In this document: positions 9,685 through 61,218 of the stretch, piece by piece
Numbering within the stretch: position 1 is the stretch's first letter
How the letters are laid out: each line of letters opens with the position of its first letter
NCBI GenBank assembly: GCA_965220065.1
Contig: OZ244804.1
Span: 4,416,915 to 4,480,914 of the forward strand
DNA from: Candidatus Poribacteria bacterium
GTDB taxonomy: Bacteria; Poribacteria; WGA-4E; WGA-3G
Length of the DNA: 64,000 nucleotides
Reading direction: 5' to 3'
Notes under the pieces: generated by a model
Database searches by the model: none
The model's input: only the letters and a program-made list of their open reading frames with translations
Told to the model about the DNA's origin: nothing
Made by a program: the position numbers and the translations under genes

Positions 9685-9830
9685 ATTACGCGGGGGTTTT
9701 CGTTAAAGTCGCACTCCTTCTTGATGTTGAAAAGGGTTAGAGTTAACCGGAAACCGTTGTGTAATGAAGTGGAGCGACACCCAGGAGCCGATAAATTAAA
9801 AAAGATAACATGCTGCCCTTACAAACGAGA

Positions 9831-10868
9831 TTATTGGGTTTGTGCCATGGGCACATTCCATTTTTCGGCGCATTCGCGAAGCTGCTGGTAGATGGAGTCG
9901 GGGATATCAATCCCGTTTGCGAGGCGGCGTGCGCGAGTATTCGCTTCAAAATCCCCGGGGACTAACACCGCGTCGAAGCCGGGCGCGGGGGGTATCGTCT
10001 TGATTGCGTCTAAAAATGCCCGAACCCCTTTTTGGTACTCAGCAAGCGATGTGAACGCGTTGACATCAATCACTTGCATGTAGAGACCGCCTATCTGTCC
10101 AGTCTCGATGTTAAATGTTCCTGCCAATCCACCGAGTAGACAGACGAAGAGGGAGAGCGCATAGCCTTTATGCCTTCCAAAAGCAAGAAGATGTCCACCA
10201 TCGCGATACTCGGCAGTTTTGACAGTGGGATTTCCGTCTTTGTCAACAACACATCCTTCCGGCAAATCTCTATTTTCGCTGTCGGCAACGTAGGTTTTAC
10301 CGTTTGCGATCATACTGGTTGCGAAGTCGATGAGAAATGGAGTATCATCGCCTGTAGGGACACCGATGGCGATCGGATTCGTCCCGAGTGCGCCAACCGC
10401 ACCACCGAAGGGGAGGATGCGTCCACCGCCTTTTGAACCGCCACCGACGGTGATAATTCCAATATATCCGGATTCCGCGGCTTCTTGTGCGTATTCACCG
10501 ACCCTGCCGATATGTCCCGTCCGAGTAAGTGTCGCGAAGCAGGTGCGCGCAGTTTTCGCTTTTTCGATCGCACGCCGGACGGTGTATCGGGCAGTATAGT
10601 GCCCAAAACCGTTTCCACCATCAATATGGAGCGTGTTGTTGGTTTCTCGTAGCACATCCGGTTCGGCATCCGGACGGATACCGCCGCCCTCAATTCCGTC
10701 GAGGTAGGAGGGAATCCGAAGCACACCGTGCGAATCGTGTCCAGCGAGATTCGCTTTTATCAAAATCTCGGCAACGTTATCCGCGATGTGCTGCGGTGTG
10801 CCTGCCGCCACAAATATGGCGTTTGTAAATGCCTGAAGATGTGCGGCTTCAAATATGTGCCTCTTCAC
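9831..10868 (-). CDS. Ldh_2 family (malate/L-lactate dehydrogenase family 2) NAD(P)H-dependent oxidoreductase, paralog 1.
   Basis: The GHDSHGV motif and overall similarity to ComC/AllD/DpkA-type enzymes support the call. A GGAGG Shine-Dalgarno lies 8 nt upstream. Confidence 0.75.
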   Translation of the reverse strand: MKRHIFEAAHLQAFTNAIFVAAGTPQHIADNVAEILIKANLAGHDSHGVLRIPSYLDGIEGGGIRPDAEPDVLRETNNTLHIDGGNGFGHYTARYTVRRAIEKAKTARTCFATLTRTGHIGRVGEYAQEAAESGYIGIITVGGGSKGGGRILPFGGAVGALGTNPIAIGVPTGDDTPFLIDFATSMIANGKTYVADSENRDLPEGCVVDKDGNPTVKTAEYRDGGHLLAFGRHKGYALSLFVCLLGGLAGTFNIETGQIGGLYMQVIDVNAFTSLAEYQKGVRAFLDAIKTIPPAPGFDAVLVPGDFEANTRARRLANGIDIPDSIYQQLRECAEKWNVPMAQTQ

Positions 10869-10904: not shown

Positions 10905-11984
10905 TTATGAAAGCGGACTATAGTGTGCCTTGTCGTCTTCCTCGACAGTGTCCTCACCGATGGAAATGCCGAGTTTGTCTGCGCATTCTTGAAGTTGATT
11001 GTAGATGGTGTCGGGGATCTCAATCCCATCCACTAACCGTTGTGTGCGGAATTGGTGTTCAAAATCACCGGGGACAAGGACTTCGTCGAAGCCGGGGGCT
11101 GGCGGTGTAGATTTAATGCCGTCTAAGAAGGCGCGCACACCTTTCTGGTATTCATCAACCGGTGTGAAGGCGTTGACATCGATGGCTTGCATGAAAATGC
11201 CGTTCATGGTGCCCTGCTCTACATCATAAGTTCCTGCCAAGCCACCAAGGAGGCATGTGAGCATAGCGAGTGCGTAGCCTTTATGTTTCCCAAACGCGAG
11301 AAGCGAACCGCCATCGTAGAAATCAGCGGGTTTGACGCTCGGCATTCCGTTTTTATCAAGAATACAACCTTCCGGTAAGTCGATGCCTTTGCTCCGTGCG
11401 ACCTGTATCTTACCTTCGGCAACCATACTCGTGGCATAGTCAACGATAAACGGACTGTCATCGCCGGTCGGCACACCGATGGCGATCGGGTTCGTCCCGA
11501 AAGCACCTTCCGCGCCACCAAAGGGGACAGTGGGTCCTCTGCCTCTACCGCCGCCACCGGTGGTAACAATTGAGATACATCCGGCTCTCGCCGCCGCTTC
11601 TGCATACTCACCCAAACGTCCAATATGTCCAGTGTTAATGATACTGATAGAACAAGAGATAGCGGTTTTTGCCTTTTCTATCGCTTTACTCATAGACCAG
11701 CGTGAGACGTAGTGTCCGAAGCCGCGTTGTCCATCGACACGTAAGGTATTCGCTGTCTCTGCGAGAACTTTGGGTTCCGCGGTCGGATCGAGTTGTTTGG
11801 TATCAATGCCGCGTAAATACGCAGGAACGCGCAGCACGCCGTGTGAGTCGTGACCCGCAAGGTTGGCATTGACGAGGATTTCGGAGACATCCTCTGCGAT
11901 GTGCCGCGATCCGCCAGCGGCGACAAAAATATTACGCGCAATTGCGTGGAGATGTGGTGCCTGAAGTAGATGCGTTTTTTCCAT
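10905..11984 (-). CDS. Ldh_2 family oxidoreductase, paralog 2, in tandem with paralog 1.
   Basis: It has the same GHDSHGV core and is collinear with the 9831..10868 product. I chose the internal start at 11984 (MEKTHLL...) because it aligns with the paralog's N-terminus. The ORF-track start at 12017 is the alternative. Confidence 0.7.
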   Translation of the reverse strand: MEKTHLLQAPHLHAIARNIFVAAGGSRHIAEDVSEILVNANLAGHDSHGVLRVPAYLRGIDTKQLDPTAEPKVLAETANTLRVDGQRGFGHYVSRWSMSKAIEKAKTAISCSISIINTGHIGRLGEYAEAAARAGCISIVTTGGGGRGRGPTVPFGGAEGAFGTNPIAIGVPTGDDSPFIVDYATSMVAEGKIQVARSKGIDLPEGCILDKNGMPSVKPADFYDGGSLLAFGKHKGYALAMLTCLLGGLAGTYDVEQGTMNGIFMQAIDVNAFTPVDEYQKGVRAFLDGIKSTPPAPGFDEVLVPGDFEHQFRTQRLVDGIEIPDTIYNQLQECADKLGISIGEDTVEEDDKAHYSPLS

Positions 11985-14536: not shown

Positions 14537-14805
14537 GGTAGGTTGGGTTGAACGAATAGGACCAGAGTGTTGGTAATTCAAAATAGGACCAGAGTGTTGG
14601 TAATTCAAAAAATCGCGTCGTTTCCATGCGACTTCTACTCCAGAGATACCGAGAGGAACCCAACACTTTTCGTATGAGGATTCGGGAATCTGGAGGTATA
14701 AAGTTGGGTTTCACTTCATCCTTGATGGGGTATAATGGCTATGAGGTTGATGTGCATTTGGAATGTTGGCATCGCACTTTTCAGTGTCGTTCAACCCAAC
14801 CTACA
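14537..14805. repeat. MITE-like element, copy 3 (full length, 269 bp), carrying an internal 27-bp tandem duplication.
   Basis: The terminal inverted repeats are gtaggttgggttgaacga at 14537-14554 and tcgttcaacccaacctac at 14788-14805. The internal unit aataggaccagagtgttggtaattcaa is repeated twice (14554-14580, 14581-14607). The internal gttgggtttcac is at about 14704. Confidence 0.75.
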
Positions 14806-16649: not shown

Positions 16650-16679
16650 AGCCCCGTAGGGGCGGCATCTCTGTAGAAC
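16650..16679. repeat. Small dispersed repeat AGCCCCnnnGGGGCGGCATCTnTGTAnAAC (hairpin plus conserved tail).
   Basis: It is nearly identical to 47231-47257 (gccccagcggggcggcatctgtataac), which places a GCCCC/GGGGC hairpin directly at a gene boundary. Confidence 0.55.
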
Positions 16680-33425: not shown

Positions 33426-33470
33426 GGACAAGCGTTCGGTTCCCTGTAGGAGGGATCTCCGAATCCCGAC
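33423..33470. repeat. Small dispersed repeat TAGGGACA...GGAGGRATCTCCGAATCCCGAC, overlapping the stop codon.
   Basis: A second copy lies at 57543-57587, also overlapping a + strand stop codon (TAG). It contains a GGAG-n-CTCC hairpin. Confidence 0.55.
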
Positions 33471-40641: not shown

Positions 40642-40716
<75 letters not shown>

Positions 40717-41604: not shown

Positions 41605-44600
41605 ATGAAATTGAAAAAATATAACCCCTTGCAATCTTTGAGTCGTAAGTATCCGAAACTTGCGAGTTTCACCAAAGTAGCATCTTTCTTCTTCGTTGCT
41701 GTGTATATGGCAATAGTGGTTAACTTTGATGTCTCTGCGGCGATCACCGGAAAAATTTCTGGGGTAATCACCGCTGAAGAAACGGATTCCCCGCTTGCGA
41801 CTGTCACGGTAACACTCGTTGGTACAAGCACTACCGCGACAACGAACAGTGCTGGCTATTATGTTATGACCAACGTCCCACCCGGAAGTTATGATGTAAA
41901 GGTCGAGCTCACGGGTTATGCGGCAGAAACTGTAGCGGCGACAAGCGTGCTCGCCGGTCTTACGACAACGTTGGACTTTACCCTAAAGAGTACGGCTGTG
42001 CAACTTGAAGGTATAACGGTAACGGCTGTTAAGCCGCTAATTAAGAAAGATGTCACGCAGTCGACAAGAATCATTGAATCAGATAATATTGAGGCTATGC
42101 CCCGCGATACCGTGAATGGGATTTTACAAACCCTTCCTGGGGTTGCGGTGCTGAACTCAACCGGTTCAACGCATGTTCGCGGGGGTAGGTCAATGGAGAT
42201 TCGGTATCTCATTGATGGTATCCCGATTAATAATCCGATCAGCAGAAGTTTGGGGTTGAGTATCGGCACGAATTCCCTTGAGCAGATGGAGGTCATCACC
42301 GGTGGATTTAATGCGGAGCACGGTGATGCGCAATCCGGTATTGTGAATCTCATCACGAAGGTTGGAACGAATAAATTTTCTGGTAGAGTCCGATACCGAG
42401 TTGGACAGTGGGGGACGCACCACGGCGATCCGTTGTACGGTCCATGGCTTGATCCAGATAATGGATTTCGACCCGTTGCGATTGAACCCTTCAGAGGTAT
42501 CTTTTTTGGGCAACCCTACGACTATCAAAAGCCGTATCGCGGACGGGATGTCACGGTTGCAGAGTTAGCGGAACGCGAAGGCGACGAACAGGTCGTCTTT
42601 ACGGAGATTTTCCCCGGCGTATATGCCGACAGGACAGAAAACCCGCTCCAGCCCGTGATGGACCCAGAAACGGGTGAACCGCAGGTTAACCCCGATACGG
42701 GTGAACCGATTATGACGCGTCAACCTTATAAGGATGCCGATGGTACTGTTATCGACTATGAGAAGAAACAGGTTACTTTGTTAGACGGCTACGTCGTGGA
42801 TCTCGAACAGTATAAGGGATTGTTCAACGACACGAAAAAGTACGAGCTGTCTCCGAGCCATATCGGTGAATTCGCGCTCAGCGGACCGATATGGGGAAAT
42901 CGGTTGACGTTCGCTGTCTCCAGTCAGCTAAGTCGGAATCACAGTTTTTTTCCGAATAGTGGGGGAACGGGATATATCTTCCAAGGAAAGCTGAAGTTTG
43001 AAGTAACACCGAGTCTCAAACTCACTACAAGTGGGCTTTTCAATAGGTCGGAAGGTTACTCCTATGGGGGTTCGCTGCGCTTTTGGCCCAGTGCCGTTCC
43101 GGAGTCAAATTCAAACGCTCGGAATATGTCCGTGCGACTCTCACATAATATCAACTCTGGTACTTTCTATACGTTGACACTTGGGCAATTTCATCGTTCT
43201 GGTGAGGCACATCAACCCGGAAAGGTGTGGGATCCGTTGGAGAAGACGTTTGATGAAAACGCTTGGGATCCCGATAAATCCTTTGAGCAGAATCAGGAAG
43301 AAGGCAGAATCAGGAACCCACCCCAACAGGCATATAACGATACAACCTATTTAGTCGCCGGGGACAGCAATTCTTGGGGAACCAGCACTGCGACAACCTC
43401 AATCGCAAGAGCGGATTTTTCCAGCCAAGTTACGGCGAACCACCTGATCCAGACAGGCGTTGAGTTCTTGGGATACGATCTCTATAATCTCAGCACGACG
43501 AATTACGGAAGCTCCAACCTTTACATGGAGTACTACGATGTCCAACCGCAATCCTTGAGTATGTATCTCCAAGACAAGATGGAGTATGAAGGCATGATCG
43601 TCAACGCCGGGTTACGATATGACCTGTATAATCCATCTGGTGTTTCACCCCAAGACCCGTTTGATCCGCTCGAATTGAACGACGATGGCACCATCAAACT
43701 CGATAAAAGCACCCATAAAGTCGGACTCCCTATCATCAAAGATCCTGTTCAGGCTTCCACCAAACACATGATCGCCCCACGTCTCGGCATCTCCTTCCCG
43801 GTTACCGACCGATCGAAGTTGCACTTCACGTACGGGCATTACTATCAGATTCCACGAGGTGATGATCTCTACGAAAACCTCAATTTTGACATGCGGGGCG
43901 CAATCCGAAGAAGAGGGAATCCTGACTTAGATCCAGAGCGGACGATCGCTTATGAAGTCGGTATCATACGTCAATTCACCGATGACTTGACGATTGACAT
44001 CACCGGATTCACCAAGGATATTGACAAACTCGTCAATAGCGTACACGTTGACATTACCAACGATTATAGCTACTTCCTCAATAGTGAATTCGAGGGAATG
44101 CTCCACGGCATCTATGGTCGGGTGCAAGGGTTTGAACTCACGATTCGCAAATGGCGCACAGGTGGAAGTCCGGTTTCTGGACTGCTCAGTTATACCTATT
44201 CCGTCGCGAAGGGAAAAGGTTCCAGCCGAAATCTGGGCTATCTCACCTACTACCGGCAACAGCCTGACGTAACCGAAAGCCACCCGTTGGCATGGGATCA
44301 ACGTCACATTTTCTCTGGAATGTTGGACATCCAATTGCCATTTGATTCCTCTGTCAATCTGATTGGCAGGTATGGGAGCGGTTTGCCCTACACGCCGAAT
44401 CCGAGAGCACCCGTCAAACCCGACATCAACTCGAAGCGTTACCCGCCGACCTACAATGTGGATGCCCTTATCAGCAAACGGAGTCGGATTGGTGGGTTGA
44501 CTTATACCTTCTTTGCCGACATTCGGAACATCTTCAATACGAAGAATCTCGACGATATCTTAGATGCGGTGACCTATGACCGATACGGTATCCCGCTCAA

Positions 44601-44676
44601 CAGCCAAAAACATTCGCATCCGCTGTCGTGGAGTTCACCACGGTTGATTATGATGGGCGTGAGTCTGGATTTTTAG
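41605..44676 (+). CDS. TonB-dependent receptor-like outer-membrane beta-barrel with an N-terminal carboxypeptidase-regulatory-like domain.
   Basis: A signal/anchor is followed by a CarbopepD_reg-like segment (GVITAEETDSPLATVTVTLVG...GYYVMTNVPPGSYDV), a plug-like region and a long barrel ending in ...GVSLDF (terminal aromatic). Confidence 0.7.
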   Translation: MKLKKYNPLQSLSRKYPKLASFTKVASFFFVAVYMAIVVNFDVSAAITGKISGVITAEETDSPLATVTVTLVGTSTTATTNSAGYYVMTNVPPGSYDVKVELTGYAAETVAATSVLAGLTTTLDFTLKSTAVQLEGITVTAVKPLIKKDVTQSTRIIESDNIEAMPRDTVNGILQTLPGVAVLNSTGSTHVRGGRSMEIRYLIDGIPINNPISRSLGLSIGTNSLEQMEVITGGFNAEHGDAQSGIVNLITKVGTNKFSGRVRYRVGQWGTHHGDPLYGPWLDPDNGFRPVAIEPFRGIFFGQPYDYQKPYRGRDVTVAELAEREGDEQVVFTEIFPGVYADRTENPLQPVMDPETGEPQVNPDTGEPIMTRQPYKDADGTVIDYEKKQVTLLDGYVVDLEQYKGLFNDTKKYELSPSHIGEFALSGPIWGNRLTFAVSSQLSRNHSFFPNSGGTGYIFQGKLKFEVTPSLKLTTSGLFNRSEGYSYGGSLRFWPSAVPESNSNARNMSVRLSHNINSGTFYTLTLGQFHRSGEAHQPGKVWDPLEKTFDENAWDPDKSFEQNQEEGRIRNPPQQAYNDTTYLVAGDSNSWGTSTATTSIARADFSSQVTANHLIQTGVEFLGYDLYNLSTTNYGSSNLYMEYYDVQPQSLSMYLQDKMEYEGMIVNAGLRYDLYNPSGVSPQDPFDPLELNDDGTIKLDKSTHKVGLPIIKDPVQASTKHMIAPRLGISFPVTDRSKLHFTYGHYYQIPRGDDLYENLNFDMRGAIRRRGNPDLDPERTIAYEVGIIRQFTDDLTIDITGFTKDIDKLVNSVHVDITNDYSYFLNSEFEGMLHGIYGRVQGFELTIRKWRTGGSPVSGLLSYTYSVAKGKGSSRNLGYLTYYRQQPDVTESHPLAWDQRHIFSGMLDIQLPFDSSVNLIGRYGSGLPYTPNPRAPVKPDINSKRYPPTYNVDALISKRSRIGGLTYTFFADIRNIFNTKNLDDILDAVTYDRYGIPLNSQKHSHPLSWSSPRLIMMGVSLDF

Positions 44677-44703
44677 TCGAATAAGATAATATGGAGGCGA
44701 ACA

Positions 44704-44952
44704 ATGCGAATACAAGAAATCGCAGAAGCCATAGAAACGTTAAGTCCCACTGATCGGTCCCACTTACGGAGACTATTAAAAGCGCAGGACGAAGCCGATA
44801 AACTGGAAATATTTCATCAAGTCTTGCTGTCGAAAGGCTTAGTTAAAGAAGTGAAAAAGCCTCCTGTCCCTGACACGATTGAACGGCAACTCATTGAGGT
44901 CAACGGGAAACCTGTCTCACAAACAATTATTGAAGAACGGAATAGGCGATGA
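44704..44952 (+). CDS. Putative type II antitoxin (VapB-like), partner of the downstream PIN toxin.
   Basis: It is an 82-aa protein whose stop overlaps the start of the PIN gene by 4 nt (ATGA). Confidence 0.5.
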   Translation: MRIQEIAEAIETLSPTDRSHLRRLLKAQDEADKLEIFHQVLLSKGLVKEVKKPPVPDTIERQLIEVNGKPVSQTIIEERNRR

Positions 44953-45410
44953 TCTACTATATGGATAGTAGTTGTCTTGTTAAACGTTATGTCAGTGAAG
45001 TTGGTTCAGGATGGGTTCTCAGTATCACTAACCCTGTTGCAGGAAACGAAATTTACACTGTCCGCATTACAAGTGTTGAGATTGTTTCTGCCATCTCGCG
45101 GCGGAAACGGGATGGCACAATTATCTCTGCTGATGCAGCAATGGTAATTGCCACCTTGAAAAATGACTTACTGAACGAGTATCAGATTATTGAAGTGACT
45201 GAGCCGCTGGTTAATCGGGCGATGACCTTAGCTGAAACTTATGGTTTACGCGGCTTTGATGCTGTACAGCTTGCAGCAGCATGTGAAGTTCAAGCACTTT
45301 GCATCGCAAGTGGAATTCCGCCGCTCTCTTTTCTCTCAGCAGATAAGGTGCTCAATGCCGCAGCTACAGCTGAAGGACTGTCAGTGGATGATCCAAATGA
45401 CCACCCTTAA
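44949..45410 (+). CDS. vapC: PIN-domain ribonuclease toxin (VapC-like).
   Basis: It has an N-terminal Asp cluster (MIYYMDSSCLVKRY), conserved acidic residues and a ...GFDAVQLAAA segment in a 153-aa protein. Confidence 0.7.
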   Translation: MIYYMDSSCLVKRYVSEVGSGWVLSITNPVAGNEIYTVRITSVEIVSAISRRKRDGTIISADAAMVIATLKNDLLNEYQIIEVTEPLVNRAMTLAETYGLRGFDAVQLAAACEVQALCIASGIPPLSFLSADKVLNAAATAEGLSVDDPNDHP

Positions 45411-45454
45411 ATACAATAAATGTGGGTTTGGATTTTTAAGAAGGAAAATACTGA

Positions 45455-46240
45455 ATGAAGAAAATCAACATTGCAGAGGCTGATGTGATCACTGTGGCGA
45501 CGCGGCTAAAACAGTTATCACCTAATATCCCCGGATTCGGATCCGTCGATCCTGCATGGACGCGCCCCCCTGCTGTTCTTGTCATTGACTGTGTCCTTTC
45601 GCTCAACAGGAATTACGACACGTTCTTAGTTCCACGTCTGAAAACTTTCATGAGTAACCATCCTGAGACACAGCGGATAACCGACTTGGCTAAGTTGATG
45701 GCGAGTTACCCAACGCCCCATGCGTTCGTGCAACAGGAACTCAATTACAAGCACGAAAGCCGCGCAAGGACACTTCAGGCTGTCGTGGACTTCGTGTGCC
45801 AAATCGTTGAGGGAACACAAACTATTCAGGCAGAAAAAGAGGTTCTTAAACAGTGGGCAATTCTGGCTAAACCGTCGGACTACCAAACGCTAAACATCCG
45901 GGGTTTTGGGATCGCCGGTTTTCAGTACCTTCGAATGCTCTTTGGCGCGGACACTACAAAACCTGATGTACACATTATTGGATTTCTATCTGAGCTCTTG
46001 AACCGGAGGATCTCGGAGGTTGAGGCACTTCGCCTTTTGGAAGCAGCGTCTGAAAGTGTAGGGCTTTCTGTCCGGGACGTTGACACATACGTCTGGCAAA
46101 TTAGGGCGCGTGGAGAGCAAAATGCTGATGAGACAAACGCTGTTCGACTTGATCCAGACATTGCCGCCGCTTTTCCTACTGCAAAAGCCGTTAATGAAGC
46201 TTTGCGATCTGTGTTGAAAGAGAGAGGTAAGAAGAAATAA
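45455..46240 (+). CDS. Hypothetical protein with a divergent helix-hairpin-helix (HhH-GPD-like) segment.
   Basis: The segment LNIRGFGIAGFQYLRMLFGADTTKPDVHIIGFL resembles the HhH-GPD motif of EndoIII/DNA-glycosylase superfamily proteins (LpGVG...vDtHV). I recognise nothing else in the protein. Confidence 0.35.
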   Translation: MKKINIAEADVITVATRLKQLSPNIPGFGSVDPAWTRPPAVLVIDCVLSLNRNYDTFLVPRLKTFMSNHPETQRITDLAKLMASYPTPHAFVQQELNYKHESRARTLQAVVDFVCQIVEGTQTIQAEKEVLKQWAILAKPSDYQTLNIRGFGIAGFQYLRMLFGADTTKPDVHIIGFLSELLNRRISEVEALRLLEAASESVGLSVRDVDTYVWQIRARGEQNADETNAVRLDPDIAAAFPTAKAVNEALRSVLKERGKKK

Positions 46241-46274
46241 CTGTGTCTGTAACGATTGAGGGCATAACAGTCAA

Positions 46275-47105
46275 ATGAAGCATCAGGAAACAATACCGTT
46301 ATCAAATATTTACAATCGAGAAGAAGATTTCTCTACAGATCTTGCTAATAATCTTGATATTCTCAAAGTTGGCAGTTTTGAAGACGTGGAGACGGAATCC
46401 AACGTCGGGACACGCAGAGCAGATATTGTCGCTGTCGGTGAGGATGGCATCCTCGTGGTTGAAAATCAGTTTGGGAAGGCAGATTGGGATCATTGGGGCA
46501 GACTTGAGGCTTACGCCCGATTGAAAAAAGCCAATGTTGCTGTGCTGGTAGCTGAAGACTTTGAGGAAGTAATGATTGTTACTTGCAATCTACGCAATGA
46601 AGACAGCAGAATTGACTGGTATCTCATTCAAGCACAGGCGAATGGACACAAAGAACTTTCATTTCATCACGTTGCTCGACCTGCAATAGATATTCAAACC
46701 GAGAGACAACTGGACACTGAATATGATGAATTCTGGGCACCGATTCGCAGTGGTGAACTCGGAAAAGTGTTTATGGGACCACCTATGTCTGATCACAATA
46801 ACGGCTGGATGGGTAATAAAACTATTCCCGGTGTAGAAGTGTGGCTTAGACTTATTAACCAGAAATGCTATGTTCGATTGTACTTTCTGAAACCTAACCC
46901 CTTTGAACGCCGAGACAAGATCATGGAGTTATTTCCGGGATCGGAATACGATTACGAATACAAGGATACACCCACCCGTACAACGGTGATTTTTCCTGTC
47001 ATTAACAAAGGCAAAAACGACCGCGATGATTGGGATGAAATTCGCGAGAAATTAGTTGCCACGGGCACCGATATCTACAATAAAATCAACGAATCTAACC
47101 TATAG
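46275..47105 (+). CDS. Paralog A: NucS/PD-(D/E)xK-like N-terminal domain fused to a conserved ~140-aa C-terminal domain of unknown function.
   Basis: The N-terminal RRADIVAVGEDGILVVENQFGKAD resembles the GEIDLLA..G.LVVIElK core of NucS/RecB-like nucleases, but the canonical Lys is not in place. The C-terminal blocks HHVARPAIDIQTE, EFWAPIRSG, ERRDKIMELFP, VIFPVINKGKNDRDDWDEIRE and GTDIYNKINESNL are shared with the downstream paralog. Confidence 0.5.
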   Translation: MKHQETIPLSNIYNREEDFSTDLANNLDILKVGSFEDVETESNVGTRRADIVAVGEDGILVVENQFGKADWDHWGRLEAYARLKKANVAVLVAEDFEEVMIVTCNLRNEDSRIDWYLIQAQANGHKELSFHHVARPAIDIQTERQLDTEYDEFWAPIRSGELGKVFMGPPMSDHNNGWMGNKTIPGVEVWLRLINQKCYVRLYFLKPNPFERRDKIMELFPGSEYDYEYKDTPTRTTVIFPVINKGKNDRDDWDEIREKLVATGTDIYNKINESNL

Positions 47106-47230
47106 CCACTAAAGTTTGAATGATTCGTATTGCGTGCATATTGAGTTTTCAAGGCGTTCTCTATTTTTCTGTGAGTTTTGCACAAAGCGGTAACTCATAA
47201 ACAAAAAGATTTCAAGCAGAGAGAAGCGCA

Positions 47231-47257
47231 GCCCCAGCGGGGCGGCATCTGTATAAC
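47231..47257. repeat. Second copy of the GCCCCnnnGGGGCGGCATCTGTATAAC repeat.
   Basis: It matches 16650-16679 and lies about 25 nt upstream of the paralog-B start. Confidence 0.55.
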
Positions 47258-47281
47258 GTAAAACACTAAAAGGAAATCGAA

Positions 47282-48250
47282 ATGCTAAATGTAGGCGAAC
47301 AACTTGTATCTTCATACCTACGATACATCCGGGGTTGTGATTTTATCCAAACGAATTTGTACACGATCGAATCCCAAGGCGAAATTGACGTTGTCGGATT
47401 GAACATGGTGGAACAACAAGTCTACATTTGTGAGGTAGCCATTCACCTAACAACTGGACTCCAGTACGTCAAAAACAAGAGACCCAACAATGTGCAGAAA
47501 CTTACCGATAAGTTCTCCAGAGACATTGAATACGCACAAAAATACTTTGATAAACACAATCAACATTTTATGCTTTGGAGCCCGATAGTTAAAGACACAA
47601 AAGGAAAGCCTGAATACAATCAAATGCGGCATCTCGCAGAAATTAAAGCAAATATCAAAAGGCAGTATGACGTTGATATTGAATGCATAGTTAACGAAAA
47701 GTTTTACGCCTGTTTAGAAGAGTTAAGACTTCATGCAGCGGCCCAAACTGTCGCACTCCAATGTCCCTTGATGCGTTTAATGCAAATAGAGGAACTTTTG
47801 GGTAAACATGTATCAAATCATCACGCCACGCGACCGGCAATGAATATCCAAACTCAGAAGAAAACCGAGCGGGAATACAGTGAATTCTGGGCCCCGATTC
47901 GCTCTGGAGACAGTTTATTTGCGGGAAAGCCTGTCCCTATCCGAGACGAAGGTTGGGTACGTAAGAATATCCGCAATATCGGTGTGACACTCTTTCTTAA
48001 CAACCAACAATGCTATATTTTGTTGTACTTTGAAGGAGAAAATCCCTTAGAGCGTAGGGACCGGATCATGACGCTATTTCCAAAATCAGATTATATTTGG
48101 GAATGTAAGGATTCACCTAAGGAGACAAAAGTTATATTCCCAGTCCTTGACAAAGGTAAGAAGAATCGAGACGATTGGGATGAGATTCGAGAAACATTAG
48201 TCAACATGGGCACCGACATTTACAGTAAAATCAACGAGTCTGACTTATAG
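47282..48250 (+). CDS. Paralog B: NucS/PD-(D/E)xK-like N-terminal domain plus the same conserved C-terminal domain as paralog A.
   Basis: The N-terminal core is GEIDVVGLNMVEQQVYICEVAIH. The C-terminal blocks are HHATRPAMNIQTQ, EFWAPIRSG, ERRDRIMTLFP, VIFPVLDKGKKNRDDWDEIRE and GTDIYSKINESDL. Confidence 0.5.
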   Translation: MLNVGEQLVSSYLRYIRGCDFIQTNLYTIESQGEIDVVGLNMVEQQVYICEVAIHLTTGLQYVKNKRPNNVQKLTDKFSRDIEYAQKYFDKHNQHFMLWSPIVKDTKGKPEYNQMRHLAEIKANIKRQYDVDIECIVNEKFYACLEELRLHAAAQTVALQCPLMRLMQIEELLGKHVSNHHATRPAMNIQTQKKTEREYSEFWAPIRSGDSLFAGKPVPIRDEGWVRKNIRNIGVTLFLNNQQCYILLYFEGENPLERRDRIMTLFPKSDYIWECKDSPKETKVIFPVLDKGKKNRDDWDEIRETLVNMGTDIYSKINESDL

Positions 48251-48260
48251 TACACGACTT

Positions 48261-48749
48261 ATGGATTATACCATTATAGAAGCCGGTATTGACGATGTCG
48301 AAGCCATCGTGGATGTGACATTCCAAAGTTTTGAGGACGCGTTCAACAAACTGTTCTACATGGAACGTGAAGTCGCTGTCCACAGATGGAAAGCGTATAT
48401 GCGAAAGGAGCATCATCCGCGAGACGCAAAAGACCCTCGGATTGTTTACATCGCAATCGCCGATGGAAAGATAGTAGGTTTCGTTGCGGGACATCTGACA
48501 AAACGGCTCGGATTGGAAGGTGAACTCCAATCTATCTATGTTCTCCCGAAGTTCCAGGGACAGGGACTCGGAACGCAATTAGTCATTGTCCTTGCGAAGT
48601 GGTTCAAAAAGTGGGATGCGAAAGAGGTCTGTGTCGATCACAAGAACGGTAGTGAGGGTTTTTACATCAAACTGGGGGCGAGGTTCAACGATCACGGATG
48701 GTTGGTATGGGACAATTTTTTTGATGTCCTTGCGTATGAGAAAGCATAA
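48261..48749 (+). CDS. GNAT-family N-acetyltransferase.
   Basis: It has the acetyl-CoA binding region ...IYVLPKFQGQGLGTQLV... in a 162-aa protein. Confidence 0.7.
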   Translation: MDYTIIEAGIDDVEAIVDVTFQSFEDAFNKLFYMEREVAVHRWKAYMRKEHHPRDAKDPRIVYIAIADGKIVGFVAGHLTKRLGLEGELQSIYVLPKFQGQGLGTQLVIVLAKWFKKWDAKEVCVDHKNGSEGFYIKLGARFNDHGWLVWDNFFDVLAYEKA

Positions 48750-48788
48750 GGGACGACTACGAAATGATATCTGTTAAAGAGGTTATGT

Positions 48789-49418
48789 ATGCCGTTTGTT
48801 GCTGAATTGTATTTTGATCCCGCAACCGAGGAGTGCATTCGCGATGCGTGGAAAGCCATTGATGAAGCAGGAATTAGTGATTCTATGCCCAAAGGTGGTT
48901 ATCGCCCACATATATCGCTTGGGATTTGCGAGCATCTTGAACTCGAGGCGTTTGCGAAGGAACTTTCAACCTTTGCGGCGGGTATTACGCCGTTTCGATT
49001 GTCGTTCCCCAATATAGGTATTTTTTCTACATCGGAAGGGGTCGTTTACTTGGGCGCAACGGCAACCAAGCAATTGCTGAATCTACACACGAAATTTCAT
49101 GAAATCTTCAAGAAATACGCAAAGGAGCAACGCGAATATTACACTGTTGGACAGTGGGTGCCGCACTGCACACTCGCTTTTGGTTTGTCAGAGGACCAGA
49201 TCGCTGAAGCAGTAAACGTTTGTCGGCAGATTGATTTACCCGTTTCCACGGAAATCAAGGAGATTGGAGTGATGGAGGTTTCTCCTACGGATTGTCGCAC
49301 GCTATCTTCGTTTAGTCTCAAAACGAGTGATAGCATTGAACTGGATGACGAATTACGCCCCGAATACGACGAAACACTGCTAAAAAACGGCATTCAGGGG
49401 AAATACGCGAAACAGTAA
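48789..49418 (+). CDS. 2H phosphoesterase superfamily protein (LigT / 2'-5' RNA ligase-like).
   Basis: It has two H-x-S/T-x motifs (PHISLG and PHCTLA) with the spacing typical of the 2H fold. Confidence 0.6.
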   Translation: MPFVAELYFDPATEECIRDAWKAIDEAGISDSMPKGGYRPHISLGICEHLELEAFAKELSTFAAGITPFRLSFPNIGIFSTSEGVVYLGATATKQLLNLHTKFHEIFKKYAKEQREYYTVGQWVPHCTLAFGLSEDQIAEAVNVCRQIDLPVSTEIKEIGVMEVSPTDCRTLSSFSLKTSDSIELDDELRPEYDETLLKNGIQGKYAKQ

Positions 49419-49443
49419 ATGATCAATAAGGGAAAAATTTACC

Positions 49444-49839
49444 ATGAGAATATATGAATTCACACTCATTTTAACAGTCGACCCAAATGAAGAAGAAACC
49501 GATCGGCTCTACAGTATCTTTGACGATGGGACAATTGCCACGATTGGCGGGGTGCCGCGGATTCATTTTCACCGTGAGGCATTTTCGTTGGAGTCCGCAG
49601 TTGTTTCGGCACTCTTGGATATTCAAAAGGCAGGTTTTGATGCTGACCATGTGCATATTAAACCGAAGGTTGTCCTTGGCACAGTAGGCAGTATAGATTT
49701 ACGCGAGCGCGGTATTGACGAAGCACAGGCGGCAGAAATGCGGGCACGTCTCGCTTCCTTTGCCGAAGATTGGGAAAGTCCCGAGATGGATGCCTATGAC
49801 AACTATGACGAGGAAAAAGCCAAGTTACAAACGCGGTGA
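49444..49839 (+). CDS. Hypothetical acidic-tailed protein, a candidate antitoxin for the downstream MazF/PemK-like toxin.
   Basis: It is a 131-aa protein with a C-terminal acidic stretch DWESPEMDAYDNYDEEKAK. Its 3' end overlaps the toxin gene start region. Confidence 0.4.
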   Translation: MRIYEFTLILTVDPNEEETDRLYSIFDDGTIATIGGVPRIHFHREAFSLESAVVSALLDIQKAGFDADHVHIKPKVVLGTVGSIDLRERGIDEAQAAEMRARLASFAEDWESPEMDAYDNYDEEKAKLQTR

Positions 49840-50164
49840 TGTCATTCTATCACGTTTTCCGGATTCCAATTTGCATACAGCCAAACTACGTCCGGGATTA
49901 ATCGTTCAAGCGGACAATCTTCAAACCAATTTGCCGCAACTGATTGTAGCGATGATTACCAGCAAGATGTTCCGTGCTAATCACCTGAGCCGTGTTACCA
50001 TTTTAGTTTCCACACCGGAGGGGCAACAATCTGGATTAATCATGGACTCGGTAGTGATGACTGATAATCTTGCCACAGTTGTTGAAGCAACCATTGAACG
50101 GGTTGTTGGCTCGATTCCAATGAAAAAAATTAACATAGCTTTGCGGCATACCTTGAATCTATAA
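49805..50164 (+). CDS. MazF/PemK-family endoribonuclease toxin.
   Basis: The region ...KRGDVILSRFPDSN....RPGLIVQADNLQ...LIVAMITSK...IMDSVVMTDNLATV follows the PemK/MazF pattern. The start was chosen at the internal ATG at 49805 to give the usual ~119 aa. The ORF-track start at 49715 is the alternative. Confidence 0.6.
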   Translation: MTRKKPSYKRGDVILSRFPDSNLHTAKLRPGLIVQADNLQTNLPQLIVAMITSKMFRANHLSRVTILVSTPEGQQSGLIMDSVVMTDNLATVVEATIERVVGSIPMKKINIALRHTLNL

Positions 50165-50170
50165 CCGTTG

Positions 50171-51976
50171 ATGGATATTGACGGAGCACGCTTAAACAGC
50201 GAATTTACACTCGTAAAAATCGTCCTACTCTGTATTCTGATTGCCTCAGCGGTTTTAGTGCTGCGGAATCTCGGACATAGTGGGATTACGTATTGGGACG
50301 AAGGGTTTCACGCCGTCGTTGCACGGAATTTGACGAAACATCCGCTCAAATTCACGCTCTACGATCAACCGTGGCTCCCTTATGACTACAAAGGTTGGGG
50401 TGAGAACCATATCTGGCTCCATAAACCGCCTGTCGCCATGTGGACGATCTGGCTCTCGCACCTTCTTTTCGGTATCAATACGTTCGCGCTCCGGTTGCCA
50501 TCTGCAATCAGTTTGGTTGTGACGACGTGGTTGACATTCCGAATTGCTGCGGATCTCTTTGACAAACGGGCAGGACTCATTGCGGCATTCCTCCAGGCGT
50601 TTAACCCGTTTCTCTTTGAGTCCGTTCACGGCTATCGTTATTCGGATCACATCGACATCGCTTTGTTGCTCTGGGTACAGGTTTCGTGTTGGTTCCTGCT
50701 CCGTGCGATTCGGACAGGCAAACGGCGAAATTACATCTTATCCGGCGTTGCAATGGGTGTTGCGTATCTGTCGAAAAGCTACCTCGCACTCATCACTTTT
50801 GGCATCGCGCTTGTCGTTTGGTGTGTTAAGTGGGCCAGGCAAATCTATCGCGAGAGATGTGTCTCGGATAATAGCGCGCAAAACGAGGTGCAAGAAGCAA
50901 AAATTCGTCTCAGGGACATCGGTTTACAACTCTTAGCCGCACTTGCGACGGTGGCACCGTGGGTCATCTATTGCCTGATTTACTATCGCAAGGAATTCCT
51001 TTGGGAACATAAACGCGTGTTGGATCACCTCAACACCGATGTCGAGAGTTGGGGAGCAAGTTGGGACCGACCGTTGTTTGATTACATGCCGCTGTTTTAT
51101 CCGGTGTTCTATGCCGCACTCATTGCGGCGGTGTTGTGTCTGATAGTCGTCCTGTTCAAACGGTGGCAGTTAGCAGAACTTTTCGTGTTAGCGTGGGGTA
51201 TCGGCGTGATTGTCCCGCATACACTCGCAGAGACGAAAACGCCATCGGCGACGATGATTGCCGTGCCACCGCTACTGATGTGTCTCGCCGCGGTCATCAG
51301 CCGAGCATGGCAACGACGGGATTGGGTTTACACCTCTATTTGGATGGCGGGAATGCTTGCGGTGACTATCATCTCTGGTGGACGTACGCTCGTCCAGAGT
51401 CGTGACCAGTTTGATGGACTCAAAAAGATCGCACCCTTTATCCAAACGAATTTCTGGATTGTTGAGCAACTGATCGGATTTGGCGTACTATTGGCAATTT
51501 TCGCGGGTGTGTACATGCTGGTTCGCCACCGCAATGTGCAAAGATGGATATGGTTTGGTCTCCGAACCGTGGCACTGATAATTGCGTTATTCTATGCAGG
51601 ACGCTATGTGCATGCCGCTTACAGCGTCACAGAACGGAATAGTCAAGTCCCTCTATATGAAACGAGTGGACCACGTCTCCAACGTGAAATGCCAGAGAAC
51701 GCCTGTTTCTTTCTTGACGATGAGCGTGTTGGGGCACATTTCGATTTGATGTATTACGCAGATCGGTCAACGTATCAGATTTACAATAAGCACATGAAGA
51801 AGCCTCGCGATTTCAAGAGCCAAGCCAAGATAGCTCGTGAAGCCGGTGCAATTCCCTATCTTTTCTCTGTCAAAGAGACAGTCTACAATTATCCGCTGTT
51901 CATTGAAGATGAAGTGGACATCGGGAATGGAAAAATGCAACAGTATCGGGTTTTTGAAATTACGGAAACCCGATGA
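50171..51976 (+). CDS. GT-C fold glycosyltransferase (ArnT / PMT-like, GT39/83-type) integral membrane protein.
   Basis: It has about 12+ transmembrane helices. A DEG motif with an acidic first loop (YWDEGFHAV) sits near the N-terminus, as in ArnT/PMT lipid-linked sugar transferases. Length is about 600 aa. Confidence 0.65.
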   Translation: MDIDGARLNSEFTLVKIVLLCILIASAVLVLRNLGHSGITYWDEGFHAVVARNLTKHPLKFTLYDQPWLPYDYKGWGENHIWLHKPPVAMWTIWLSHLLFGINTFALRLPSAISLVVTTWLTFRIAADLFDKRAGLIAAFLQAFNPFLFESVHGYRYSDHIDIALLLWVQVSCWFLLRAIRTGKRRNYILSGVAMGVAYLSKSYLALITFGIALVVWCVKWARQIYRERCVSDNSAQNEVQEAKIRLRDIGLQLLAALATVAPWVIYCLIYYRKEFLWEHKRVLDHLNTDVESWGASWDRPLFDYMPLFYPVFYAALIAAVLCLIVVLFKRWQLAELFVLAWGIGVIVPHTLAETKTPSATMIAVPPLLMCLAAVISRAWQRRDWVYTSIWMAGMLAVTIISGGRTLVQSRDQFDGLKKIAPFIQTNFWIVEQLIGFGVLLAIFAGVYMLVRHRNVQRWIWFGLRTVALIIALFYAGRYVHAAYSVTERNSQVPLYETSGPRLQREMPENACFFLDDERVGAHFDLMYYADRSTYQIYNKHMKKPRDFKSQAKIAREAGAIPYLFSVKETVYNYPLFIEDEVDIGNGKMQQYRVFEITETR

Positions 51977-57545: not shown

Positions 57546-57587
57546 GGACATTTGGTTCTTGTGTCGGAGGAATCTCCGAATCCCGAC
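57543..57587. repeat. Second copy of the TAGGGACA...GGAGGAATCTCCGAATCCCGAC repeat, overlapping the sulfatase stop codon.
   Basis: It matches 33423-33470. Confidence 0.55.
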
Positions 57588-61046: not shown

Positions 61047-61218
61047 GCCTGCAACATCGGCGCAGGCGGGTATATGGGCAGGCACGTTATTTTCAGAACT
61101 AACCTGACCGAACCGCAAGGAAAAATTAGAAAGCCTGCAACATCGGCGCAGGCGGATATACGTCGAGAATCCTTCTTCCTTCAACATGCTTGACCGAACC
61201 GCAAGGAAAAATTTAAAA
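61047..61218. repeat. Tandem ~86-bp duplication, each unit starting with the REP-like palindrome GCCTGCAACATCGGCGCAGGCGG and ending with TGACCGAACCGCAAGGAAAAATT.
   Basis: The units are 61047-61132 and 61133-61218. The palindrome is identical to 12146-12166. Confidence 0.7.

Follow-up and report, generated by a model that had tools for sequence, protein, structure and literature searches.

Introduction

Core defense hotspots, as described in Pseudomonas aeruginosa, are reportedly fixed chromosomal sites, comprised between conserved genes, which harbor varying defence genes. A locus of this kind occurs in a sponge symbiont, a Candidatus Poribacteria bacterium (GenBank assembly GCA_965220065.1, contig OZ244804.1), from which a stretch of 64,000 nucleotides (nt), positions 4,416,915 to 4,480,914 of the forward strand and hereafter called the window, has been analysed. 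The 5.5-kb segment at positions 44704-50164 of the window probably corresponds to what a variable chromosomal slot of addiction and defence genes now contains; this slot extends from a TonB-dependent receptor (TBDR) gene to a GT-C glycosyltransferase gene across Candidatus Poribacteria. Like the hotspots of P. aeruginosa, the slot consists of a fixed site between conserved genes, with varying defence/addiction genes, an atypical composition and no dedicated integrase. It differs from them by its conservation across many species of a candidate phylum instead of a single species, and by a collinear and uniformly co-directional content, dominated by toxin-antitoxin modules and single-gene nucleases. 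Defence hotspots located between core genes are already known (PMC10250203), and the slot is an unusually well documented example of them. The more novel parts are the fusions of O5 and of a HEPN protein with a DUF4268-like domain, an orphan protein with a glycosylase fold, and a modular MazF antitoxin.

Described defence systems also offer counterparts for individual proteins of the slot. Madara, i.e., PDC-S11, is composed of a NucS-like PD-(D/E)XK head and an EVE-like C-terminal domain; the Escherichia coli Madara restricts phage T4 with glucosyl-hydroxymethylcytosine and not T4(C), and the D63A mutation abolishes defence (bioRxiv 10.64898/2026.09.05.749240). MdgA and MdgB are two different nucleases, both with a DUF4268 domain, and each confers modification-dependent defence; the E77A mutant of MdgA shows no activity in vitro (bioRxiv 10.1101/2025.02.28.640651). 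The Dag proteins are unannotated glycosylases of the HhH fold, which protect Vibrio from phages whose guanines are modified (bioRxiv 10.1101/2025.10.29.685425).

Restriction-modification and toxin-antitoxin genes are over-represented in sponge symbionts (PMC5649159), and the phage defences of these uncultured bacteria are known mostly through counts of gene categories. In this respect, the slot provides a concrete hotspot, comparable by alignment among about 60 species, in which gain, loss, decay and domain swapping of toxin-antitoxin and anti-phage genes are directly readable. Judging from the sequence of O4, the recently validated modification-dependent nucleases of the Madara/MdgA type would also reach a new phylum, and the slot supplies candidates for expression screens, namely two architectures built on a shared sensor domain and the orphan glycosylase-fold protein. 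Current ideas are not overturned.

Organization of the slot and its variation among Poribacteria

The original prediction made on this DNA described an accessory island between a TBDR gene and a GT-C gene. The segment indeed contains nine open reading frames (ORFs), all on the + strand and located where they had been placed. They are designated O1 to O9 from 5' to 3' and are listed here with the flanking genes and a short repeat (lengths in amino acids, aa):

41605..44676, + strand, left flank, TBDR, 1023 aa (NCBIfam TonB-receptor families)
44704..44952, + strand, O1, VapB-like antitoxin candidate, 82 aa (ATGA overlap with O2)
44949..45410, + strand, O2, PIN-domain (VapC-like) toxin candidate, 153 aa (Pfam PIN)
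45455..46240, + strand, O3, HhH-GPD-glycosylase-like fold, 261 aa, with a core of about residues 1-220 and a tail derived from the antitoxin X72 (AlphaFold2, Foldseek)
46275..47105, + strand, O4, Madara/PDC-S11-type protein, 276 aa (PADLOC PDC-S11, 3.8e-21)
47230..47250, + strand, hairpin repeat AGCCCCAGCGGGGCGGCATCT (AGCCCCnnnGGGGCGGCATCT), in the O4-O5 spacer
47282..48250, + strand, O5, YraN/PD-(D/E)XK-like head (residues 1 to about 180) and DUF4268-like C-terminal domain, 322 aa (alignment of the C-terminal domain with O4, AlphaFold2 model)
48261..48749, + strand, O6, GNAT N-acetyltransferase, 162 aa (Pfam Acetyltransf_1, 3e-15; Acetyltransf_7; Acetyltransf_10)
48789..49418, + strand, O7, 2H (LigT-like) phosphoesterase, 209 aa (Pfam 2_5_RNA_ligase2, 3.8e-17)
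49444..49839, + strand, O8, chimeric MazF antitoxin candidate, 131 aa, N-terminal domain of about 85 aa and 45-aa acidic tail IDLRERGIDEAQAAEMRARLASFAEDWESPEMDAYDNYDEEKAKLQTR
49796..50164, + strand, O9, MazF/PemK-family toxin, 122 aa (Pfam PemK_toxin, 6e-14)
50168..51976, + strand, right flank, PMT_2 GT-C glycosyltransferase (Pfam PMT_2, 1e-24)

The sequence of the window is found identically on a 5.39-Mb metagenome-assembled Poribacteria contig, which encodes exactly the O4 protein, and homologues bear the name Candidatus Poribacteria. With the GT-C protein as a query, 80 species-representative loci containing orthologues of 62-96% identity were retrieved from Poribacteria genomes, and the window proteins were located in them by tblastn. 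ORFs were then called and clustered in 63 species-level slots, the window's own counted among them. The fetched comparison loci are labelled by L-numbers (L001, L055, etc.), and coordinates given with such a label refer to positions within that locus. The TBDR gene, whose copy in L001 encodes Pfam CarboxypepD_reg/Plug/TonB_dep_Rec domains, precedes the slot in about 60 relatives, in a conserved neighbourhood which reads PhoH-YbeY-CorC-RecO-TBDR-slot-GT-C-991-aa protein-PorV-like. Adjacency of the TBDR and GT-C genes in other genomes, which had been proposed as a sign of insertion, was encountered once, in L055, where the slot is empty and measures 441 bp; elsewhere, the two genes flank 0.9 to 6.8 kb of variable content, with a maximum of 6.8 kb in L071. 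The 63 slots display 58 gene architectures, none of which matches the gene set of the window, and the same block is therefore far from being present in all relatives. A chromosomal defence or addiction hot-spot, preferred by the original prediction to a recent insertion, is supported by this synteny comparison.

The content of the slots comes from about 20 gene families. The O4/O5 family occurs in 53 of the 63 slots, an 86-aa antitoxin in 36, a 211-aa membrane protein in 33, O3 in 25, a GFO_IDH_MocA oxidoreductase in 23 and the 2H phosphoesterase in 20, followed by a HicB-like protein (DUF7387; 12 slots), MazF and X72 (11 slots each), VapB (9 slots), PIN and HicA (6 slots each), and GNAT (5 slots). 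Besides HicA, other residents found in relatives include BrnT (Pfam 2e-26) and a DUF4258 protein with an MqsA-like zinc-finger partner. All 260 labelled slot genes lie on the + strand, and they usually follow a common order, i.e., VapB, PIN, O3, X72, O4/O5, HicB, HicA, GNAT, 2H or GFO oxidoreductase, and membrane protein, which is broken in just 10 of 279 gene pairs. Given this nearly constant succession of genes, differential loss from an ordered array is considered to contribute to the present content as much as acquisition.

The identities of the flanking proteins co-vary among the loci, those of GT-C being correlated with those of TBDR (rho 0.91), of the 991-aa protein (rho 0.93) and of RecO (rho 0.87). 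Depending on the gene, the residents of the slot follow this pattern or escape from it. The identity of 2H follows that of the flanks (rho 0.72), an indication of vertical inheritance of this gene, and that of O3 does so in part (rho 0.50). O4 identity, on the other hand, is uncoupled from that of GT-C (rho -0.05, n=45), which suggests that O4 alleles have been exchanged between lineages. The suggested vertical descent of the 2H gene qualifies the previous statement that every ORF of the island is of a type enriched in mobile or defence islands. The closest species, L011, shares 89% of its nucleotides with the window across GNAT-2H-O8, 77% in O4 and 93-95% in the flanks, and its slot is devoid of VapBC, O3, O5 and MazF. 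In all slot comparisons, homology breaks at gene boundaries.

Decay is equally apparent. The slot of L017 has collapsed to 916 bp and contains remnants only, i.e., an O4 derivative, two hairpin repeats and a 90-aa remnant of 2H (remnants at 9099-9368 and 9688-9960), the O4 derivative being an 89-aa in-frame fusion of the N- and C-termini of O4; it is a snapshot of the erosion of the array. Orphan antitoxins exceed toxins, with 36 ORFs carrying the tail of the MazF antitoxins for 11 MazF, and at least five VapB without an intact PIN.

Such remnants, together with the order conserved in 269 of 279 pairs, the co-direction of 260 genes and the behaviour of 2H and, partly, of O3, are what a decaying ancestral operon would leave, namely a single long ordered array present in the ancestor of Poribacteria and lost piecemeal, with neither exchange nor acquisition still going on. 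This explanation is unlikely, since it accounts neither for the lack of any relation between the identities of O4 and of the flanks, nor for the GC contents of VapBC, O4, O5 and MazF, 2.5-4.4 standard deviations (sd) below the window genes. The head of O5 is 58-88% identical to proteins of Proteobacteria, including those of a Variovorax megaplasmid and an Accumulibacter prophage, and in L006/L064 an O5 unit led by a hairpin replaces the MazF gene past its first codons.

The explanation that we favour, a variable slot of addiction and defence genes, would combine both processes. The slot would keep co-directional modules drawn from a shared pool, in a nearly fixed order. Part of them would be type II toxin-antitoxin modules, with the VapB-like/PIN and MazF pairs in the window and HicAB, BrnTA and DUF4258/MqsA-like pairs in relatives. 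O4, O5 and O3 would be candidate anti-phage enzymes aimed at modified DNA, with the DUF4268-like domain as a putative sensor, whereas GNAT and the 2H phosphoesterase would accompany them as residents without an assigned role. The content would be renewed by whole-gene deletion and by homologous recombination via the conserved flanks and the shared resident genes, with no need for an integrase or a mobile element. We infer recombination as the probable mechanism of exchange from the comparison of the sequences.

Composition of the island and its borders

The island differs in guanine plus cytosine (GC) content, with 44.5% compared to 50.9±2.2% for the 42 other genes of the window. The difference, revealed by the GC profile that the original prediction had called for, is unevenly distributed: O1, the PIN gene, O4, O5 and MazF lie 2.5 to 4.4 sd below the window genes, O5 being the lowest of the island (41.1%), but O3, GNAT, 2H and O8 remain within about 2 sd and are not clearly atypical. 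The GC content at third codon positions of O2 is 3.9 sd under that of the window genes.

A low GC content and a cargo of mobile type could point to a recently inserted mobile element, such as an integrative island, a prophage remnant or an integron cassette array, the latter being also evoked by tightly packed genes of the same strand. As previously noticed, however, no integrase ORF is present and no direct repeats flank the island; inverted repeats are equally lacking around it, and no tRNA gene adjoins it, the nearest one being a tRNA-Pro at 40642. Except for the O4-O5 spacer (176 nt), the spacers measure 3-44 nt, a length insufficient for attC sites, and no junction motif common to cassettes is visible by eye across the intergenic sequences. 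Moreover, the site holds overlapping subsets of shared families in about 60 species and the O5 head remains unmatched in phage collections, so that a recent insertion is largely refuted and has a very low probability.

No match was obtained in an Rfam search of positions 44000-51000, and promoter-like and terminator-like sites occur in the island at the frequency of shuffled sequences. Genes for TnpB of the IS605 type (OrfB_IS605/Cas12f1-like_TNB) are located less than 10 kb from the slot in several Poribacteria, e.g., L002 (791-1900) and L003 (from 20027); no link of these genes with the turnover of the slot was established.

Profile searches gave contrasted results for the toxin-antitoxin and defence assignments. 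In a PADLOC scan of the island, O4 was recognized, O8 weakly so, and no other ORF. In the Pfam searches, MazF, GNAT and 2H are firmly identified, as had been expected, whereas PIN is borderline; O1, O3 and O5 match no family in Pfam, NCBIfam or PADLOC, and neither O1 nor O8 matches an antitoxin family. Searches of the Protein Data Bank (PDB) sequences with O2, O3, O4, O5 and O8 yielded chance-level matches only.

O4, a putative nuclease of the Madara type

O4 consists of an N-terminal NucS-like PD-(D/E)XK domain linked to a divergent DUF4268-like C-terminal domain. It matches the PADLOC model PDLC04914 (PDC-S11) over residues 5-232 (3.8e-21), and its alignment by hhalign with the family of nucleases associated to DUF4268 spans both domains (probability 99.93, E 2e-35, 263 columns). 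O4 itself has no Pfam DUF4268 match at E 0.1 or below, and the link comes from this profile-profile alignment; more distant relatives of about 310 aa do carry Pfam DUF4268. Within the O4 family, residues D50, E63, Q65, H73 and Y80 do not vary, and in the alignment they correspond to the invariant D/E/Q/H/Y of DUF4268 proteins. D50 and E63 of O4 may accordingly be equated with D63 of Madara and E77 of MdgA, because the spacing between D63 and E77 (14 residues) equals the D-to-E spacing in the aligned DUF4268 proteins.

O4 thereby shares with Madara/PDC-S11 and MdgA the two-domain plan, the D...E-x-Q motif and a C-terminal domain of the DUF4268 type. It is shorter (276 aa compared to about 310) and its C-terminal domain has diverged too far for the Pfam DUF4268 model. 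Modification-dependent restriction is known for Madara and MdgA; by analogy, O4 and O5 would cut modified phage DNA.

The O4 family is small: among 1.84 billion proteins, the representative clusters that match with E 1e-3 or below number 469. Full-length O4 occurs in 45 of the slots of relatives. Among these 45 orthologues, the nuclease head retains 80±4% identity and the C-terminal domain 60±6%, the latter being lower in 45 out of 45 (p 5e-9). A faster divergence of the C-terminal domain is what would be expected of a target-sensing domain engaged in an arms race.

O5 and the shared C-terminal domain

O4 and O5 were previously regarded as two NucS-like paralogs. The NucS-like character of O4 stands, via PDC-S11/Madara, but the two proteins have in common only the DUF4268-like C-terminal domain (160 aa, 55% identity, E 2e-58), and their N-terminal domains are unrelated. 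Concerted evolution of the two C-terminal domains was considered and rejected, the identity within a genome (54-58%) being not above that between genomes (52-59%) in three genomes.

The AlphaFold2 model of O5 (predicted local distance difference test score, pLDDT, of 86.6) displays two domains connected by a disordered linker (residues 181-196). The fold of the head weakly matches (E 0.015 or higher) PD-(D/E)XK nucleases such as N.BspD6I, the R2 endonuclease, Avs3, Card1 and AF1548, and the C-terminal domain weakly matches folds resembling type III secretion system chaperones and YbjN. In the head, E6, D36, E51, H55 and the helix lysines K64, K73 and K77 are conserved, but no Lys occurs two residues past E51. 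Like MdgB, O5 puts the shared C-terminal domain on another nuclease-like head; it differs from Madara, MdgA and MdgB by a head which belongs to a family without a Pfam model and without the canonical Lys.

The head of O5 also exists alone, as proteins of 180-210 aa with 58-88% identity, e.g., in Steroidobacter, Billgrantia, Accumulibacter and Variovorax. Stand-alone homologues of 66-77% identity were found in three contexts: in an Accumulibacter prophage, where the protease and capsid genes of the head module flank the homologue (L094-L096, 5001-5627); in a Variovorax megaplasmid (L007-L010, 8001-8642), tail-to-tail with an IS605 TnpB gene (L007, 8639-9844); and in the equivalent slot, from TBDR to the 991-aa protein, of a smaller-genome lineage which has no GT-C there (L091/L092, 5001-5564). 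Since the identity remains high across phyla, a recent horizontal spread of the O5 head is suggested. Only eight matches were obtained for the head among plasmid records, and none in the phage collection or in IMG/VR.

The C-terminal domain of the O4 type is fused to a variety of other partners, including HSDR_N nucleases, a 5'-3' exonuclease domain, RAMA, arrays of TPR and HEPN_Swt1. The last of these fusions takes place in the slot itself, where L060 (5936-7381) and L071 (5307-6824) encode a protein of 481-505 aa with a Swt1-like HEPN domain (29.1 bits, above the cut-off), a coiled coil, the DUF4268-like domain of the O4/O5 type and a DprA winged helix. HEPN would thus constitute a third effector head on the sensor-like domain of O4 and O5. 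The association of a single sensor-like domain with many effector heads is typical of conflict systems.

A more specific interpretation of the slot, possible but less likely than not, can be put forward: a collinear store, common to Poribacteria, of modules for the surveillance of modified DNA, in which a fast-evolving DUF4268-like sensor would have been recombined, at a single site, onto at least three unrelated effector heads, beside an orphan HhH-GPD glycosylase. The heads would be NucS-like in O4, YraN-like in O5 and, in relatives, a Swt1-type HEPN RNase with the DprA winged helix. If the slot is such a store, O5 and the HEPN fusion would represent new architectures of a type-IV-restriction-like or abortive-infection kind, phages of sponge symbionts would commonly carry hypermodified DNA, and the tail of O8 would be a portable MazF-neutralising peptide, which can be grafted onto different carrier domains.

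O3, a protein with a predicted glycosylase-like fold

O3 had been described as an HhH-GPD-like hypothetical protein, and its predicted structure points in this direction. The AlphaFold2 model is all-helical (pLDDT 86), and the top nine Foldseek matches in the PDB are all HhH-GPD glycosylases, among them MagIII, SsOgg, MUTYH, Mag2, hOGG1 and AlkA. The scores are weak, with E values of 0.02-0.5 and template modelling (TM) scores of 0.33-0.50 overall (MagIII, probability 1.0, TM 0.43-0.50). At the level of the sequence, O3 has no Pfam HhH-GPD match and none was found by sequence and profile searches of the PDB. The segment G150-F-G...F163-G...K169-P170-D171-V-H varies little or not at all, K169 and P170 being invariant and D171 conserved in at least 90% of the sequences. 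It resembles, by eye, the HhH-loop-Asp motif of EndoIII, GVG...VD138-T-H, with D171 as the presumable catalytic Asp, a residue that HhH-GPD glycosylases have about 20 positions past the hairpin.

The relatives of O3 are built on a core of about 220 aa followed by variable C-terminal add-ons, including DUF7387, and are essentially restricted to Poribacteria. A single relative was found in IMG/VR, with 42% identity over residues 35-214 (UViG_3300048837_002360; L097, 4857-5570), on a 30.6-kb GC-rich viral contig.

Like Dag, O3 is an unannotated protein, recognizable by its predicted HhH-glycosylase fold alone and located within a defence locus, and it may be analogous to Dag. In contrast to Dag, it shows a weak fold match (TM 0.5 or less), a tail derived from an antitoxin and a distribution restricted to Poribacteria. 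Judging from the modelled fold, O3 would excise a modified base.

Toxin-antitoxin pairs

The VapB-like/PIN pair with an ATGA overlap, recognized in the original prediction, is found again. The PIN domain of O2 reaches 23.3 bits in Pfam (E 1e-4), i.e., 0.3 bits under the cut-off of 23.6, over 105 of 120 model positions, and the acidic residues D6, E43, D104 and D132 occupy, by eye, the positions expected for PIN. For O1, no DNA-binding domain of the AbrB, RHH, Phd or HTH type was detected by Pfam, NCBIfam or PADLOC. In the relatives, O1 precedes seven out of seven intact copies of PIN, which was never seen without it, and occurs as an orphan in at least five slots. The pair resembles VapBC systems by the candidate PIN toxin following a small ORF, the 4-nt overlap and the strict co-inheritance (7/7), and differs from them by an O1 which lies outside the VapB, AbrB, RHH and Phd families and by a PIN domain just below the Pfam threshold.

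The second pair, O8/O9, contains a well-defined toxin. O9 scores 52.6 bits with PemK_toxin (cut-off 23.1) and matches the MazF-like phrog_1936 (5e-12). Depending on the start codon, ATG 49796 or the alternative ATG 49805, it overlaps the 3' end of O8 by 44 nt or 35 nt; the gene call of MazF in L001 gives 122 aa. The upstream partner, O8, is unlike a typical MazE, as had been pointed out together with its acidic tail: no match with the MazE/AbrB families (AbrB/SpoVT fold) was obtained in Pfam, NCBIfam or the PDB sequence search. Its N-terminal 77 residues match PADLOC PDC-M06B (2e-7) and phrog_2620 (5.5e-7), and its tail is acidic and contains W.

Two forms of MazF partner share this tail of 45 residues (IDLRERGIDEAQAAEMRARLASFAEDWESPEM..YDNYDEEKAKLQTR). 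The common form, found in 36 slots, has 86 aa and an AF2212-like N-terminus (Pfam E 0.018, sub-threshold), whereas the other carries the 85-aa domain of O8, which also exists alone (89-93 aa; L029, L039, L070) or, elsewhere, fused to HTH regulators. Whatever its N-terminal domain, an ORF with the tail lies upstream of 11 out of 11 intact copies of MazF. Since the tail rides on different N-terminal domains and yet precedes every MazF, it is likely to be the element that neutralises MazF, the N-terminal domain being interchangeable. MazE ends in an acidic tail containing Trp, on which the likeness of the O8 tail to MazE is drawn. The pair shares with MazEF a PemK/MazF toxin whose gene is overlapped by the upstream gene; it differs by the lack of an AbrB/SpoVT DNA-binding domain in O8 and by a tail carried by an AF2212-like or 85-aa domain. 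Both O1/O2 and O8/O9 are predicted, from their sequences and association, to be active as toxin-antitoxin pairs.

GNAT, 2H phosphoesterase and antitoxin-derived tails

O6 belongs to the GNAT acetyltransferases, with no equivalog-level match in NCBIfam. A toxin of the TacT/AtaT type was considered and dismissed, in the lack of a DUF1778/RHH partner and with an upstream neighbour that varies among slots (O5, O4 or O3). O7 exhibits the HxS/HxT motifs of 2H phosphoesterases (HIS and HCT) in RPHISLG and VPHCTLA. Two forms of 2H occur in relatives, of 179 aa without a tail and of 209 aa.

The tails of O7 and O3 are related to X72, a 72-aa BrnA-like antitoxin which is intact in 11 related slots, e.g., L057 (6877-7095), and adjoins BrnT in L071 and L079. 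The last 25 or so residues of O7 (49340-49418) correspond to the N-terminal half of X72, and the last 35 or so of O3 (46127-46240) to its C-terminal half. Both tails look like relics of earlier fusions or deletions.

Among the 11 slots with MazF, five have 2H immediately before the MazF pair, and cleavage of the MazF type leaves 2',3'-cyclic phosphate ends, which are substrates of 2H enzymes. Taken with the close spacing and common direction of the genes and with a glycosylase standing beside nucleases, this arrangement could suggest that the nine genes form one integrated system, e.g., a defence or nucleic-acid repair operon in which the glycosylase, nucleases, GNAT and 2H work together. Such a system is most improbable: the genes occur independently of each other, in 58 architectures for 63 slots with the set of the window in none, at least 15 slots contain 2H but no MazF and six contain MazF but no 2H, and the components differ in GC content and in their pattern of inheritance.

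Points opposing the interpretation of the slot

Several observations weigh against a variable addiction and defence slot as the explanation of the segment. Losses from an ancestral array, and not acquisition, could be responsible for most of the near-fixed order, and recombination is deduced from patterns of identity. Some residents bear no defence signature, i.e., 2H, which looks vertically inherited (rho 0.72), and, in relatives, the GFO oxidoreductase and the 211-aa membrane protein; PADLOC picks out O4 only, plus O8 weakly. The functions of all components are predicted from homology, fold and context: O4 falls short of Pfam DUF4268 when compared directly; the head of O5 is deprived of the canonical Lys after E51; the fold of O3 was matched with E of 0.02 or higher and TM of at most 0.5, in a protein without Pfam HhH-GPD and with D171 located by eye; PIN stays 0.3 bits under the Pfam cut-off, and O1 and O8 match no antitoxin family.

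The hairpin repeat and other repeats

The GCCCC repeat reported in the middle of the island is present at 47230-47250; within the window, it is only a two-copy hairpin (AGCCCCnnnGGGGCGGCATCT), whose other copy lies at 16650-16670 (or up to 16675). Two copies for 0.27 expected, a number reached in 3 of 100 shuffles, do not represent a significant enrichment, and the idea of a repeat enriched within the window was dropped. In the fetched loci (1.9 Mb), nine unique copies were counted, six of them inside slots.

In the window, and likewise in L035 (two copies; 7790, 7839), the hairpin and the next 45 or so nt lie directly upstream of O5, and in L006/L064 a degenerate hairpin upstream of O5 abuts the first codons of the truncated MazF gene. 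Because copies precede O5 in all these loci, the hairpin marks the 5' edge of the O5 unit. Further copies occur in intergenic DNA of Poribacteria (L017, 9495 and 9545; L067, 6436), together with variants such as AGTCCCGTAGGGACGATATGT, with variant copies in L088 upstream of 7145. The hairpin may be an element similar to the repetitive extragenic palindromic (REP) sequences or a cassette boundary.

A second short repeat of the window, TGTAGGAGGGATCTCCGAATCCCGAC, occurs at 33445-33470 and 57562-57587, in copies that are 92% identical, start with GTAG and contain an internal palindrome; it resembles REP elements. Outside the island, the window also contains a direct repeat of 300 nt (70% identity; 9945-10244 and 11058-11357, spaced by 1113 nt), located inside two adjacent minus-strand genes, a perfect tandem duplication of 27 nt (14555-14608), and a tandem duplication of 86 nt with 76% identity (61047-61218).

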